Part shown: positions 44,426-62,104 of the stretch, piece after piece
How the letters are laid out: each line of letters starts with the position of its first letter
Numbering within the stretch: the stretch's first letter is position 1
DNA from: Eledone cirrhosa
Lineage: Eukaryota
Reading direction: 5' to 3'
Length of the DNA: 64,000 nucleotides
Assembly (NCBI GenBank): GCA_964016885.1
Contig: OZ024741.1
Span: 413,230,001 to 413,294,000 of the forward strand
Translations under genes and position numbers: made by a program
The notes under the pieces: generated by a model
The model's database searches: none
Seen by the model: the letters and a program-made list of their open reading frames with translations, nothing else
Told to the model about the DNA's origin: nothing

Positions 44426-44732
44426 AGTATGCTTTTGGGTTTTTTTGTGTGTGTGTTTGCATGTGTAGTTTTATTTTATTTTTCCTTTCCTTCTCCCTTC
44501 TCCAGCCTCACTTTCATATAGATTGCATTTTTGTTTTTATAATCCAAATTCAATAAACAAACCAGGATTTTTTCATTCTGAGGATTGAAAGCAAAACCTT
44601 TTGCTTTTAAGAAACCACTGGTAAATGGAATAATTGCCTTATGTTGTTTATTACATAATAATAATAATTAAGCTCTGTTGCCTACATAGAGCACTCTTTT
44701 TTCCTGGACTTTTCCGATGGAATTACTTCATT

Positions 44733-44787
<55 letters not shown>

Positions 44788-44789
<2 letters not shown>

Positions 44790-46079
44790 ATGGCCGAGCT
44801 AGAGAAGAAATTCCAAACATGGAAGCACGGCCTAGAGTCAAAAGGACTTAAAATTAACCTGGCTAAGACCAAAGTTCTAGTTTGTAGGAAAGAAAACAAG
44901 GCGGCGGTCCCTTCTGGGAAATGGTCGTGCTCGGTGTGTAGGAAAGGCGTAGGTAGAAACTCCATTTTGTGTCCTAAATGCAAAGTATGGGTGCATAAAA
45001 GATGTAGTGGGATCACAGGTAAGCTAACTAAGAACATAGATTTTACATGTGGCCGGTGTTCTGGTGCAATAAGTAGCAGCAAGTGCCCACACAATACTAG
45101 CTCTTTCAATTGCGCAGAGGGTTCTATAGAAATAGTGGACAGCTTCCGTTACCTGGGCGATAAAATCAGCAGTGGGGGAGGGTGCTCTGAAAGTACTGTA
45201 GCTAGAGTCAGAACTGGTTGGAAAAAGTTCAGAGAGCTTATACCACTATTAGCTGCTAAAGGGTTCTCCCTAAAAATGAAAGGCAGGTTGTACGATGCCT
45301 GCATACGAACAGCAATGTTGCATGGCAGTGAGACCTGGGCATTGTGTGCAGAGGATATACGCAGACTAGAGAGGAACGAAGCTTGCATGCTCCGCTGGAT
45401 GTGTAACAGTAATATACGTGAACGGCAAAGCATAAACGAACTAAGGAAAAAATTAGAGATAAGAGGGATCAGATGTTGTTTACTCGAGAGAAGGCTACGT
45501 TGGTATGGACACGTGATGCGCATGAAAGTCGATAGCTGTATAACAAAGTGCAGGGCAATAAAGATAGACGGTAGCCACGGAATAGGCAGACCTAGAAAAA
45601 CCTGGGACGAGCTGATAAACTCCGACCTCACACACTTACACCTCTCCAAGACAATGTCACTGGACCGAGACCTTTGGCGGTACTCAGTAACAGAGAAGAC
45701 CCGCCTTGCCAGTAGGCATCTCTAACAAAATACACCCCGTCCCACCACCACCACCCCCACCCCATCCACACCACCCCGTCCTATGTAAAGTTATGTTGGT
45801 GCCGCGCCATCCGGGCCGAAACAAATGAGATCGTGTAGGTGTCACGACAAAAAAACACACAGTCCACGCTGTAATGTGGCCGTGTAGGCAACACGGTAAA
45901 AACCTCCCAGACCCACACTGTAAATGTGGTTGGTGTTAGGAAGGGCATCCAACTGTAGAAAACCTGCCAGACAGTCCTATGCGAGCAAGACAATCACTCT
46001 TGCCTCAAGTGGGACTACCCCCGTCCAAACCCATGCAAGCGTGGAAACGGACGTTAAACGTTGATGATGATGATGATGA

Positions 46080-51323: not shown

Positions 51324-51730
51324 TTAGCCTGGGCTGCTCGGTGGATTCCATACGGAGAGTGTCCACCTTCTCTGGTGTCTGCACGTCATGATTATTTTTG
51401 ATTTCAGGTTGACTGCATCATCCTTCAGTCTGACTATCTCCATGGCCTCGGATAGGCATAGGCTACACATTCTATTTCCAGCCGAGTATGCATTCGCGTG
51501 CCGAACGATACTCCAGTTGAGGGCATATGGGGTGCCTTTGTCTTTCAAGTCCCACACCAGGTCCGCCAGCCTAGTAGAGTGCCTCTTGCTCCAGTCCTTG
51601 AAAGAGTTTGTGTGGTTATACATCCGCAATTTAAAGGTTGTGGATGTTGCGCCGATGTTGGTGCGCTTTATATTGTGCGTGCTAACCACACATTTATATA
51701 CCAGGCCCTTCGTTAGGCATCTTCCCTGCA
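51324..51730 (-). mobile_element. Penelope-like element C-terminal GIY-YIG endonuclease remnant
   Basis: [12 protein letters not shown]...TNIGATSTTFKLRMYNH...STRLADLVW...CSLCLSE...VN...CRH; stop at 51324; 5'-truncated at (TA)n. Confidence 0.85.
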
Positions 51731-51824: not shown

Positions 51825-52260
51825 TTTGCCTATGTACAAAGCGAAATCTACAGTCAGTAGGCACCTCTTAACCAAATATACACCCCAATCCACTACCCCT
51901 ACTCTATCCTCCCACTCCCACCAACACCACTCTCTCTCTGTAAAGTTGGTACCACAACATCCAGTGCAAATAAATGACATAATGAAATGGAGATTGTGTA
52001 GGTGTCATGACAAAAAAAACACACGGTCCAAGCTGTAATGTGGCCGTGTAGGTAACATGGTAAAAAGCTCCCGGTCCACACTATAAATGTGGTTGGTGTT
52101 AGGAAGGACATCCAGCCATATAAAACCTGCCAGACAGTCCTATATGAGCGAGATGAGCGAGACACGGTCACCCGACCAAACTTGCCTCAAATTGGGACAA
52201 CTCCCGTCTAACCCATGCTAGCATGGAAGATGGACGTTAAACGATGATGATGATGATGAT
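51825..52260 (+). mobile_element. RTE family A 3'UTR and tail
   Basis: Homologous to 45710-46083 and 59740-60155; (GAT)n tail. Confidence 0.9.
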
Positions 52261-52441
52261 ATATATATATATATATATATATACATTGTTATACTTTGGG
52301 AGGGTCATGTTGCCAATAAGAAACACACGCACCAGTTGCTTTCACTTCAATTTAATTTAATATATATTTATAAATTTACAAATTTATAAATTTCTGGTTG
52401 GTTGGTTGGTTCCACAACCAGATAGTTGTTTATATATATAT

Positions 52442-52486
52442 AGTCATAGTTCTTTCGTCACACACTCTGTGACCTCTTCAGTGACT
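52442..52486 (-). ncRNA. Hammerhead ribozyme motif, left palindrome arm
   Basis: Mirror copy of 52614-52658. Confidence 0.8.
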
Positions 52487-52613
52487 GGGGATTTCTTTCT
52501 TCGTTTCTGTGCCTTTCCTTTCTTCTATCCTACGCCATTTTGTTTGTGTGTCACAAACAAAATGGCGTAGGATAGAAGAAAGGAAAGGCACAGAAACGAA
52601 GAAAGAAATCCCC

Positions 52614-52658
52614 AGTCACTGAAGAGGTCACAGAGTGTGTGACGAAAGAACTATGACT
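52614..52658 (+). ncRNA. Hammerhead ribozyme motif, right palindrome arm
   Basis: AGTCA-CTGAAGA-G-GTCACA-GAGTG-TGTGAC-GAAA-GAAC-TA-TGACT: 5-bp stem I, intact core, 6-bp stem II, minimal stem III. Confidence 0.82.
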
Positions 52659-53137
52659 ATATATATATAAACAACTATCTGGTTGTGGAACCAACCAACC
52701 AACCAGAAATTTATAAATTTGTAAATTTATAAATATATATTAAATTAAATTGAAGTGAAAGCAACTGGTGCGTGTGTTTCTTATTGGCAACATGACCCTC
52801 CCAAAGTATAACAATATCGGTTTCAACACACGATTTCAGATAAAGAATCTTGCTAAACAAATTCAGAAACGAAATATATATATACACATATACATATATA
52901 TAAAGAGAGAGCGAGAGAGAGAGAGATTTAAAAGAGTCGAAGTCAGTGTTGCAGTATATGTAGAAACTTTATTTGTATATTACAATTATTTCAATATTGA
53001 TCAGTTGAGGGTATAATCAAGGTGACAGGCTCCGACTGTTTTTTGACATCTTGTCAGATATACAAAAACACATCTAAACATCATAATAGCATTGAGTGCT
53101 TCAAATGGCACACCACCTTAACTGTGTTACACAACTA

Positions 53138-56500: not shown

Positions 56501-56757
56501 AAAGAAAAAAAGATGAAATCTAAAATGCAACTGGATTCTTATTTTAAAATAGATATATTTATTTGGTTCCTTTACCGGTTTTGCACTTCTTCTGCTTTTC
56601 AAAAGTAGAGTTGAGATGGAGATTCTGTGGTTTTTCTCTCAACTCTACTTTTGAAAAGCAGAAGAACTGCGAAACCGGTAAAGGAACCAAATAAATATAT
56701 ATATATTTTTTTTTAATAAGACTCCAGTTGCATTTTCGATTTCATCTTTTTTTCTTT
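56501..56757. repeat. Imperfect inverted repeat (~116-bp arms, 20-nt spacer) with mirrored hammerhead-like motifs
   Basis: 56501-56616 vs 56637-56757; right arm CTT-TTGAAAA-GCAG-AAGAA-CTGC-GAAA-CCGG-TA-AAG at 56648-56683. Confidence 0.88.
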
Positions 56758-57455: not shown

Positions 57456-58278
57456 TTTACGTCCGCTTTTCCCTGCTTGCAAGGGTGGGACGGGTCTTAT
57501 TCAGCACAGCATCTCTCCACTCGTCACGGTCCCTCGTCATCTCCACCGTGAGCTTCAATGATCTGAGGTCTGTTCTCACCACCTCCGCCCATGTTTTTCG
57601 TGGTCTACCTCTACCACGTCTTCCTTCAACTGGCATTTCCTGGCACTTCTTCACCCATCGGTCATCCTCCATGCGCATCACATGTCCATACCACCTCAGT
57701 CTCCTCTCCCGTACACTACATTCTATCCCTCTCAGACACAGTTTCTCTCTCAACACATTTATGCTGGGTCGTTCACGCACATTTACACTGCACATCCAAC
57801 GGAGCATGCTTGCCTCATTTCTCTCCAGCCGTTGCATATCCTCTGCGGTTGCTGCCCATGTCTCACTACCATGCAGCATCGCGCTCCTCATACAGGCATC
57901 ATACAACCGGCCTTTCGTACGCAGGGAGAAACCCTTCTTCGTCAACAGAGGAAGCAGCTCCCTAAACTTCTTCCAACCCGTCCTTATTCTAGATACTATA
58001 GCCTCGGAACACCCGCCTCCCATGCTAATCTGATCTCCTAGGTACCGGAAGCTATTCACCACTTATATAGCGCCCTCTCGCATTTGAAAAATGTGTCTAT
58101 CAGTGCGACTTCTACTGTCTAATTTCCCTGTACATCTACTGCATACATATTTCTCCCTACCTGTTAGTTTGCCTGCTATCCCACTACATCTCTTGTGTAC
58201 CCAGGACCTGCATTGTGTGCATTTTATAGAATTTATGCCAGTTCCTTTTCTGCATATCGAACATGGCCATTTCCCTGA
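57424..58278 (-). mobile_element. 5'-truncated RTE LINE (family B), one premature stop
   Basis: SGKWPCSIC...GAI*VVNSFRYLG...LHGSETW...RRLRWYGHVMR...GRPRKTW...DRDEWR; stop at 58063-58065; ORF ends at the (GAT)n tail. Confidence 0.93.
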
Positions 58279-58366: not shown

Positions 58367-59580
58367 TAGGGTGCGGGCAATATTTGTTCGCAAGATTACT
58401 GTCTAGGAAAAAATAACACAGTAGTTTTATTTTTTTAAATATATTTATCAAACTTGGGTCAGTTTGTCTTCATGACTTGTTCTTTCGATCTAACTCGATA
58501 AACCCGCCATTGGCTTTGATGACGGCCTCAAGGCAGCCTCGGAACCGGCTAAAGGCCTTCGTCACTGTCCCCCGACTTATTTCATATTGCAGCTAGATCT
58601 GTTGGTGTCTTGTCCCACTGCGCCCACTGCACAAAGAAGTCGAGGGGGTTGCAGTCAGGCGAGCTGGGAGGCCAGATGTCAAGTGGAGTATGGTCGACGA
58701 AGTTTCTGACAGCCAGGCTTGGATCTTTCGGCTGGTATGGCAGGGCGCTGAGTCTTGCTGCAACACGTACGGCCTACCTGTAGCTACCTGGTCAATCCAG
58801 GGCTTTACTACCTTGCTCAGAACGCGGATGTAGCCATCAGTGTTCAACTTGAGGCCCTCAGGGAAGAAGTGAGGTGGCATGACGTCACCTTGACTGCTGA
58901 CGACACCTAAGGCCAATGTTGTCGCTGGAAACTTTGTCTGCATGACTCTGGGCATGTCTTTGGATGAGACAGCGAGCCACCTGTTGTTCTGGGAGGTGAT
59001 CTTCTGGTCTTGGCAGAAGTTTTTCTCGTCGGAGAAAAACCACAGCATGTCTGGCTCCAGTGTGTGTTTCAACTTGTTGATCAGTTTCTTTGCGTGCTTC
59101 AGTCGCTTTTCTTGCATCACCTTTGACAGAAATTGTCCTTTATTCATCTTGTATGAAACGTAGCGAATGTCTTCATGTACCACCAGCCTAATGAGCTTTT
59201 CATCCACGCCTTTCACCCTTGCAATAGCACGAATCAACTTGCTAGGTTCATTGTTGATGATATCCTGAACTTCAGCGACGAACTCGGGCGTTCTGAAGGC
59301 GTCGGATCATCGATCATGTGTTTTCCTCTCTGCTTCCAATTCCTTTCTGACCTTTTCCACCATTCTCCTGCTAACGCTGAGAAAGTCTGAAATTTTCATA
59401 TTTGTCCTCCCTGCGCAGATTCCAAGAAGAACTCTGTGTCTCTTCCACAAATTTGGAGGTTCAAAATTATTCATAATCAATTATTCTGAAAATATGAAGA
59501 CAAGAGTGACAATGGAAGTAAAAAAAAATGTGCATAAAATTAGCAGTTGAAAATTGCGAACAAATATCGTCCACACCCTG
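58367..59580 (-). mobile_element. Tc1/mariner-superfamily DD37D (maT) transposon, frameshifted transposase
   Basis: 27-bp imperfect TIRs (58367-58393, 59554-59580; CAGGGTG...ATATTTGTTCGCAA) with TA flanks; FSDEKNF, QQDSAPCH, WPPSSPDCNPLD; 37 residues between the last two Asp after restoring one base near 58703. Confidence 0.92.
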
Positions 59581-60245: not shown

Positions 60246-60255
<10 letters not shown>

Positions 60256-60312
60256 TCACCAGAATCAAAGCTATGTTCAAAACATAGCTTTGATTCTTGT
60301 GAATTCTATATA
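60246..60312. repeat. Hairpin: 32-bp arms (1 mismatch), 3-nt loop
   Basis: TATAGAATTCACCAGAATCAAAGCTATGTT-CAA-AACATAGCTTTGATTCTTGTGAATTCTATA. Confidence 0.92.
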
Positions 60313-60448: not shown

Positions 60449-60572
60449 AGTCCTATGCGAGCAAGACAGTCCTATGCGAGCAAGACAACCACTCTTGCCT
60501 CAAGTGGTAAAACTCCCGTCCAAACCCATGCAAGCGTGGAACATGGACGTTAAACGATGATGATGATGATGA

Positions 60573-60575
<3 letters not shown>
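60449..60575 (+). mobile_element. Short RTE family A 3' end with 19-bp tandem duplication at its 5' junction
   Basis: AGTCCTATGCGAGCAAGAC twice, then hairpin and (GAT)n. Confidence 0.85.
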
Positions 60576-60629
<54 letters not shown>

Positions 60630-60636
<7 letters not shown>

Positions 60637-62104
60637 GGATATACGACACCTAAAAAATAAACGCAACCATGCCTCTCCTGGTCTTGATGGTGTTACGTAC
60701 CTGCTTCTTAAATGTGGTGGGTACTTCCTTCTGCACCAGTTATCATGCTTCTTCCAATTCTGTCTGAACAACAGTGCTACTCCAGAACAGTGGAAAACTG
60801 CCAGTGTAATTCCTCTGTTCAAAAAGGGTGACCGCACATCACCTGTGAACTATCGTCCAGTCAGTCTTACTAGTTGCATCGCCAAACTGATGGAATCCTG
60901 TGTCAGAGAAACACTTTGGAACTTCTGGAGCTCTCACAGTCTTATCCGGCCCTCGCAATTTGGATTTATCCCCAACTCCAGCTGCTGTGATACACTTATA
61001 GAGTTTCTTGAGGACATCACCTGGATCACTGATATCGGCTCATGGGTGGATGTTGTTTACCTTGACTTTGCGAAAACCTTCAATTCTGTGCCACACAAAA
61101 GGCTTATGGCATAAAGAATGCCACGGTACTAAAGTACGCAGATGACATCAAGCTGTACCTTGAGATAAAAAGGACAGATCCTGAACACTATAGATCTTGC
61201 TTGCAGTCTGACCTGGACACAATGCAACAATGGATCTCAGACTGGCAACTCAAGTTAGCTGTGGATAAGTGCACCACCATGCATTTTGGGAGTAAAAACA
61301 CACTGTCCACATACTCCCTCCACAGCACTAATATCAAGAAGTCTTCTTGTGACTGTGACCTGGGCATTACGGTCAGCAGCGATTTGCGTTGGACGAAGCA
61401 CGTCTCTAAAATTATCAAGAGGGCCAAGGGTGTCTTAGCATCACTCAGCAAGACCTTTGTCAGCCGCTCTCCAGATATCTATTTAAGGCTGTACATGGCT
61501 ATGGTGCGGCCACACTTAGAATTTGCATCACCAGTCTGGAACCCCCATCTTGCTCAGAACATTGACCGCCTGGAAACTGTTCAGAGACGTGCAACCAAGT
61601 GAATACCCTCCATCAGGCATCTACCATACTCTGAGCGCCTTGCTTCCCTGGGCATGGATACATTGAAGCTCCGACGCCTGGCAACTGACTTGGTAAACAC
61701 CCACAAAATTGTTAACCATCTTGCCAACAACAACCCTGAGTACCTTTTTGATTTCCATGTGTCTAACACACGTGGACATGCCCACAAAGTCAGAAAACAG
61801 CACAGCTCCCATGACTTTCTGAAACATTTTTTCACGCTCAGAGTTGCTGAAGCATGGAACAAACTACCTGCATCAGTTGTTAGCTGTCGAGACACTGCAT
61901 CCTTTAAGGCCTCCATGCTTCCTGAGATCCGCCAACACTACAGCTATTGTTCCCCCCCCATACACATACACACATGTATACCATGACTCATACTCTATTC
62001 ACTTCCCTGACATTTGTGTATTATTCTATGTACTATACATACACCTTTGACGAGTTGTAGTGCACCTGAGCACTTTACACAATAATTTCATTATTATTAT
62101 TATT
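60630..62104 (+). mobile_element. CR1-type LINE, RT pseudogene with internal deletion
   Basis: SPGLDG, WKTASVIPLFKKGD, NYRPVSLTS, QFGF, YLDFAK, KYADDIK (~61135), VRPHLEFASPVWNP, VQRRATK, TRGH, WNKLP; GVPQGS block missing at ~61110; TGA at 61600; (ATT)n tail. Confidence 0.93.

Follow-up and report, generated by a model that had tools for sequence, protein, structure and literature searches.

The palindrome and its setting

The window, by which we mean the whole stretch of DNA analysed here, comprises 64,000 nucleotides of Eledone cirrhosa (contig OZ024741.1, positions 413,230,001 to 413,294,000). At the locus under study lies an inverted repeat with two arms of 264 nt (52285-52548 and 52552-52815), 100% complementary to each other and separated by 3 nt, a perfect pairing far above chance expectation. 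The palindrome is flanked on both sides by (TA)n, and its right arm is prolonged by 57 nt, up to the last base of codon 27 in the opening part of an ORF (Table 1). A preliminary description of this sequence had reported 264-bp arms, both of which were recovered here. It had also placed a 3-nt loop at the centre: the spacer TGT is indeed present, but it is templated, being the reverse complement of an ACA in the natural upstream sequence of the Penelope-like element (PLE) concerned, so that the left arm measures 267 nt and the join is flush. The ORF-start tail described at ATG 52792 stands as well, since it reads MTLPKYNNIGFNTRFQIKNLAKQIQKR and natural tandem copies extend it into an RT-endonuclease ORF. 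At the junction, the left arm begins at an A, and there is a G where the natural sequence has a C.

Table 1. Features of the head-to-head insertion, numbered from the first letter of the window
Feature	Position	Strand	Remarks
(TA)n target remnant, left	52259..52284	.	adjoins the (GAT)n tail of another repeat
Left arm, inverted untailed PLE end module, 267 nt including TGT	52285..52551	-	terminus at site 1 (AACAAT), an internal start site
Minimal type I hammerhead, mirror copy	52442..52486	-	mirror of 52614-52658; predicted cut after 52447, minus strand
YY1-like motif CAAAATGGCG, mirror copy	52533..52542	-	mirrored position; compare the L1 motif CAAGATGGCCG (PMC2912911)
Flush head-to-head junction of type T|C, read as G|A on the minus strand	52549..52553	.	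G:C clamp, presumed cap-derived
Right arm, pseudo-LTR spanning the putative transcript start to site 1 (PLE end module)	52552..52815	+	inverted-repeat match
YY1-like motif CAAAATGGCG	52558..52567	+	immediately 3' of the junction zone
Minimal type I hammerhead	52614..52658	+	motif and minimal-hammerhead description (PMC4209133); predicted cut after A52653
First 27 codons of the PLE ORF (MTLPKYNNIGFNTRFQIKNLAKQIQKR)	52792..52872	+	identical start opens the 1318-aa ORFs in L144/L145
57-nt tail, internal start site 1 to site 2	52816..52872	+	comparison with element copies
(TA)n-rich target remnant, right	52873..52901	.	sequence

The parent element

The palindrome derives from a young PLE, of which it represents the end module (pseudo-LTR); the intact ORFs of this PLE, 1318 aa long, contain the motifs YVDD and VYSIRC..YIGET. 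A Pfam search with the whole 1318-aa ORF returned no match; an 863-aa piece of it matched RVT_1 with E=1e-3, below the Pfam cut-off. The look-alikes found by the Atlas language model are RT and GIY-YIG proteins (0.96-0.97), and there is a weak match to an intron endonuclease (E=0.23). With a single ORF that joins an RT to a GIY-YIG domain at its C-terminus, the parent belongs to the endonuclease-positive PLEs. The linker before the endonuclease, CIDKKCITC, fits the CX2-5CxxC pattern that, together with a (TA)n target, defines the Neptune and Nematis clades (PMC8557442), and by this linker and target the parent would be Neptune/Nematis-like. One of the intact ORFs (L145:1575-5531) carries a long Asn/His/Thr-rich N-terminal insert, longer than in the other subfamily, which resembles the N-rich inserts of Adineta Penelopes.

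Searches of the species' own genome (3.0 Gb) with exact sequence patterns give 4381 + 4414 = 8,795 matches to the 30-nt core of the hammerhead ribozyme (HHR), with 0 for the reversed control, and 2,493 exact matches to the marker of the window's subfamily. Pseudo-LTRs also occur in partial tandems that overlap the ORF start (L031, L144/145, L151 and L153).

The zone in which the head-to-head junctions fall lies between GCGCATGCGC, a putative NRF1-like motif, and the YY1-like CAAAATGGCG. The middle base of the YY1-like motif is A, G, T or C depending on the copy, and the form found in a third subfamily, CAAGATGGCG, is nearly identical to the YY1 site of L1, CAAGATGGCCG. In D. virilis the Penelope promoter lies inside the pseudo-LTR (PMC2377424), and the L1 YY1 site directs transcription starts to nearby purines (PMC2912911).

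The hammerhead ribozymes

An intact, outward-pointing hammerhead core had been claimed for each arm, and both cores are present. In the right arm, helix I pairs AGTCA (52614-18) with TGACT (52654-58), and the core consists of CTGAAGA (52619-25), an extra G (52626) and GAAA (52644-47). Helix II pairs 52627-32 with 52638-43, helix III has only 2 bp, and the CUA triplet ends at A52653. This identification comes from the motif and from the published description of minimal HHRs, whose features are all found here (the CUGANGA/GAAA/NUH core, the extra base before G10.1-C11.1, a long helix II and a minimal helix III), rather than from a family model: Rfam returned no hammerhead match for 101 bases even at E<=10, only spurious microRNA-hairpin matches below the cut-offs. 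Across 383 sampled copies, some of them from overlapping loci, variation exceeds 10% at only 4 of the 45 HHR positions, namely in loop II, in loop III, at H17 (A/U) and at the end of helix I. Since the common variants are confined to tolerated positions, the motif is, judging from this variation, under selection in the parent element.

Published minimal HHRs cleave poorly alone or require a protein (PMC4209133, PMC11167929). A dimer in cis is impossible in the palindrome, whose two HHRs occupy opposite strands. As regards the palindromic loop III through which minimal HHRs can dimerise, a self-duplex of the loop here (AGAACU) is predicted to contain two A-A mismatches, at +1.4 kcal/mol. The preliminary description had envisaged a switch in which the ribozyme competes with the duplex. 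Such a switch is unlikely according to the predicted folds: the central 301 nt of the duplex alone reach -281 kcal/mol as compared with -11.7 for the isolated HHR, and in a read-through transcript, where the sense HHR sits in the second arm, the pair probability of helix II against the duplex is 0.0. A read-through transcript of the palindrome is thus predicted to be a closed duplex.

HHR cleavage was considered as the origin of the arm starts and ruled out, as the cut site lies about 100 nt downstream of the points where the arms start. The same distance indicates that the RNA templates were uncleaved, in line with the PLE PAc discussed below.

Abundance and age of the short palindromes

This genome contains about 900 short PLE insertions in head-to-head arrangement, among them the palindrome described here. 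Head-to-head junctions fall in a zone of about 25 nt just upstream of TGGCGTAGG at 695 + 75 + 142 loci, counted with three loosened junction patterns that are disjoint by length or sequence and include a few local duplicates. Patterns of like design found only 9 and 3 junction loci in zones further upstream; in the downstream zone, which lies just upstream of the HHR, element junctions account for about 5 of 28 matches, the other 23 being other repeats or chance matches that were not counted. The short class makes up 17 of the 33 opposite-strand pairs among the first 100 listed of the 2,493 subfamily matches. For the detailed analysis, the 50 listed of the 75, the 50 listed of the 695 and 40 of the 50 listed of the 142 loci were taken, plus others, and 134 junctions were parsed; these are the first loci listed per search rather than a random sample, lie mostly on contigs C1-C5 and include local duplicates (L104, L170/171, L220-222).

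Arm divergence ranges across loci from 0 to over 20 differences. Perfect arms occur at 29 of the 64 sampled loci of the window's subfamily as compared with 1 of 45 in other subfamilies, and the median arm difference within loci is 0. Of the other sampled copies of the subfamily, 25 of 63 show zero substitutions relative to the window's tailed arm, so the suggestion of a recent insertion is borne out, and the window's arms are perfect because the subfamily is young. The suspicion that the palindrome is a fold-back artefact of the library or assembly, or else an old insertion homogenised by gene conversion, is hardly credible. Palindromes are notoriously hard to assemble, but the two arms here differ by a biologically defined tail, their flanks are unique and different, and hundreds of loci are built in the same way; gene conversion is unneeded, since the distance between loci is tiny too (median 0.8%).

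One tail per insertion

Among the 110 short loci with both ends resolved, the tail is present on exactly one arm in 109, on both arms in 0 and on neither arm in 1 (24 of the 134 were dropped because an end was unrecognised). The same rule holds in 28 of 28 longer pairs, after 5 of 33 loci with a single terminal arm only were dropped. (TA)n borders both ends in 109 of 109 short loci, and in 0 of 109 does the sequence continue into the ORF. At both start sites, 1 and 2, ATAT comes next in the element, as in the (TA)n target. In vivo, each insertion appears to draw once on each of the two internal start sites. The initial reading of the locus as an inverted PLE pseudo-LTR with an ORF-start tail was right; the parent ORF starts with the tail peptide. 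One pair of near full-length copies in head-to-head orientation (L047+L048, G000:C1:13322500-13336000) forms an inverted repeat of 11.5 kb, likewise with one tail.

It had also been suggested that the palindrome might represent a non-coding mobile unit, a hairpin transcribed and re-inserted whole, and other copies with the same centre junction had been proposed as a check. Such copies exist: the exact 35-nt junction occurs at 6 unlinked loci on 5 contigs with differing flanks, and is hence not unique; each of two junction classes is seen more than 15 times, and one haplotype is found in 5 of the 6 same-junction loci. That haplotype, however, is the commonest in the subfamily anyway (37 of 64), and the tail side is free of the junction (right in 4 and left in 2 of the six loci, 21 versus 20 overall). 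One haplotype may carry 3-4 junction types and one junction type several haplotypes, dozens of junction variants exist, and the same haplotypes extend into ORF-bearing copies. The hairpin moreover lacks the upstream promoter half, and its read-through transcript would fold as the closed duplex predicted above. With junctions that cut across haplotypes and a tail side that varies, there is no fixed centre or pair of ends that is inherited, and a self-propagating unit is very improbable; junctions that are independent of haplotypes indicate that they are made anew at each insertion.

The junction signature

In the window's subfamily, the junction zone consists entirely of A and C, so that in parsing a join there is no doubt over which arm could have supplied a given base. 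Of its flush joins, 44 of 46 are of the type G|A or T|C (expected fraction 0.49; P 5e-12). In most of them the G is also assignable to the other arm, and only the cases with an inserted G are unambiguous. The two arms start 1 nt apart in 34 of the 46, where shuffles give a mean of 11 and 0 of 20,000 reach 34. The arms begin at A residues of ACACACAAAC, ACAAAC and AAAATGG, and the arm starting at A is the tailed one in 21 loci and the untailed one in 20. A third subfamily (CAAGATGG, 21 loci) was left out of these statistics because its natural reference is missing.

The 100 listed of the 153 AAAATGG junctions were classified by hand. A G that comes from neither arm stands just before the A-run in 38 of them, 17 of which have 5-6 A instead of 4; 10 have an extra A only, 49 are natural and 3 are of other kinds. 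About half of those listed show ordinary microhomology of 1-2 nt and no G. The comparison of G with A is biased, as an extra A is often absorbed into the natural A-rich sequence. Five inserted-G loci that were fetched belong to a subfamily without any G in the zone, and the single-base insertions at parsed junctions are G:C pairs in 6 of 6. A natural deletion variant was considered as the source of the G and rejected; only 2 copies of it exist genome-wide. From the arm starts it may be inferred that transcription begins at the A residues of GCAACCCACACACAAACAAAATGG and that the junction zone is the cluster of start sites, and the extra G would then derive from the cap. No report of a cap-like G or of start-site clustering at inverted PLE junctions was found in the main text of the PLE papers covered by the search.

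Two further observations concern junctions. Those of L132 and L135 contain the arm start 2-3 times in tandem, each copy templated, a pattern that recurrent slippage or jumping while the ends are joined would produce. Among the AAAATGG junctions, that at G000:C1:241865375 is one example in which the G has 5-6 A after it, as against C and 4 A in natural copies; this may record polymerase stuttering at initiation.

Proposed origin of the insertions

We propose, with a probability of about 0.65, that a short head-to-head (TA)n insertion would consist of two cDNAs primed on opposite strands of the target, each of which runs off where the RNA begins, at its capped 5' end, before the two are joined. 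Transcription of the PLE would start some 230-250 nt upstream of the ATG, at A residues of a CA-rich tract that is bounded by the NRF1-like and the YY1-like motif. The PLE protein would nick both strands of the (TA)n target and the RT would begin inside the RNA, as published in vitro for another PLE. It would do so at two start sites, one per strand, that lie near the beginning of the ORF at a distance of 57 nt, which would yield the observed pattern of one tailed and one untailed arm; with priming at the pair that comes first on the RNA, about 265 and 320 nt would be copied before the cDNAs arrive at the 5' end. Opposite the cap a C would be added to each cDNA, and the 3' ends would be held by one or two G:C pairs, in many cases with a T-T mismatch at the centre, to be extended on each other. 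Two cDNAs ending in GTC would anneal as G:C, T-T and C:G and give rise, with random polarity, to the centres TG-T-CA and TG-A-CA, which are the commonest ones and whose polarity is random. In the window, the C of the left cDNA would pair with the next G inward, which would produce the offset of 3 nt. The hammerheads would be passengers from uncleaved RNA, and the product a dead-end insertion.

The individual elements of this scheme have precedents: PAc uses two internal RT starts and extends both strands while its HHR is dispensable (PMC11167929), and twin priming, YY1-directed starts and a G from the reverse-transcribed cap are known from L1 and SVA (PMC2912911). That twin priming is obligatory, with one start site per strand, that the clamp is a cap-copied C and that the palindromes amount to a fossil map of 5' ends, we hold to be slightly better than an even bet.

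Twin priming might also operate with a zone that is a site of RT stalling or RNA processing, the extra C being a non-templated addition independent of the cap. It is known that RTs add non-templated bases. The near-symmetric mid-ORF junctions of five longer pairs (L041, L079, L146, L149 and L155) also fit such a zone, as they indicate that symmetry alone needs no transcript start. Yet the zone has a sharp upstream edge and directly precedes the conserved YY1-like motif, the G stands before an A whose natural predecessor is C, the extra A after the G suggests slippage at initiation, and the HHR cut lies about 100 nt away from where the arms start; this alternative appears unlikely.

Self-priming on an antisense template has been proposed for palindromic PLE junctions (Arkhipova et al. 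2013, PMC3846280). Here, a single cDNA or antisense RNA would snap back at the junction, copy itself and halt 57 nt short, which would account for identical arms, near-symmetric centres and the private variants common to both arms, and the 3-nt loop of the window is sterically possible. The 1-nt "loop" of the commonest centres, however, is too tight for an intramolecular snap-back, and the process must start from a tailed cDNA, whereas in 20 of 41 loci, the present one included, it is the untailed arm that starts at A. Annealing through a G-T wobble, rejected as a source of the joins, would yield T|A or G|C, seen in 2 of 46. Self-priming is, on this evidence, quite improbable.

Comparison with known systems

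Inverted pseudo-LTRs, one-sided tails, palindromic junctions and twin HHRs on opposite strands are already published. The endonuclease-positive PLE units with inverted pseudo-LTRs (Arkhipova 2013, PMC3846280; Craig 2021, PMC8557442) share with the present insertions a 5'-truncated copy inverted head to head, an ORF-start tail at one end, a palindromic junction and the (TA)n target, and partial tandems occur elsewhere in the family in both cases. Contrary to those units, the insertions described here have no ORF body, a tail of 57 nt instead of 30-40, and about 900 copies with their junctions in one zone; those papers attribute the palindromes to self-priming on an antisense template, and no cap-like G is mentioned in their available text. 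How the inverted repeats of PLEs and their one-sided tail are formed is named there as an open question (PMC8557442, PMC3846280).

The dual minimal HHRs of S. mansoni (Cervera and De la Pena 2014, PMC4209133), on opposite strands and 100-700 bp apart, have the same layout, with a short helix I, a long helix II and an extra base before G10.1, and exist, as here, in thousands of copies from truncated PLEs; the available text of that paper gives them one sentence, in which junctions, tails and mechanism are not analysed. PAc, a Poseidon element studied in vitro (Frangieh et al. 2024, PMC11167929), shares internal start sites that define the tail and the cutting and extension of both strands, and HHR cleavage is unneeded there too. 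However, it belongs to another clade, its starts are not homologous to the target, whereas here ATAT follows at both ends, and its inverted junction is unexplained in the available text.

In L1 (Kojima 2010, PMC2912911), cDNAs from both ends of the target are likewise annealed mid-way, with a cap G and a YY1 motif just inside the start, but its two cDNAs span different parts of the RNA, whereas here they span the same part and result in a perfect palindrome. The non-LTR retrozymes (bioRxiv 10.64898/2026.07.22.740005) are also small, non-coding, PLE-derived and HHR-bearing; they form head-to-tail tandems with their HHRs on one strand, whereas the present insertions are head to head, with no sign of self-propagation. 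An identity with retrozymes was rejected, as the two HHRs lie on opposite strands.

Significance and neighbouring features

Taken alone, the locus is what a known class of retrotransposons ordinarily produces, and its value is that of a sample from a large young set. If true, the twin-priming reading would settle the in vivo origin of PLE inverted repeats, against antisense self-priming. The one-tail rule, the narrow zone and the G signature constitute three numerical predictions that can be tested in the existing in vitro system. If transcribed, about 900 near-perfect hairpins of 0.5 kb may supply double-stranded RNA, or they may act as fragile sites.

Other repeats are found in the same window. 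At 51324-51730, on the minus strand and 550 bp from the palindrome, lies a 3' fragment of a different PLE (its endonuclease end, CSLCLSE..CRH), cut at (TA)n. An older, imperfect palindrome at 56501-56757, with arm pieces of 71 and 49 nt at 92-94%, stands beside an (ATC)n tail and is perhaps what decay has left of a short insertion from a different family. A hairpin with 32-nt arms (60246-60312) directly follows (TA)n, with a similar start after (TA)n in L021, and may belong to another (TA)n-targeting family. The stretches 44634-45725, 57457-58062, 58593-59306 and 60554-61986 are presumably fragments that look like RTE-type LINEs, a Tc1/mariner transposase and a CR1/L2-type LINE. Finally, 5412-35744 is occupied by a 30-kb satellite with a G/T-rich unit of 33 bp in about 950 copies and an extreme strand skew.
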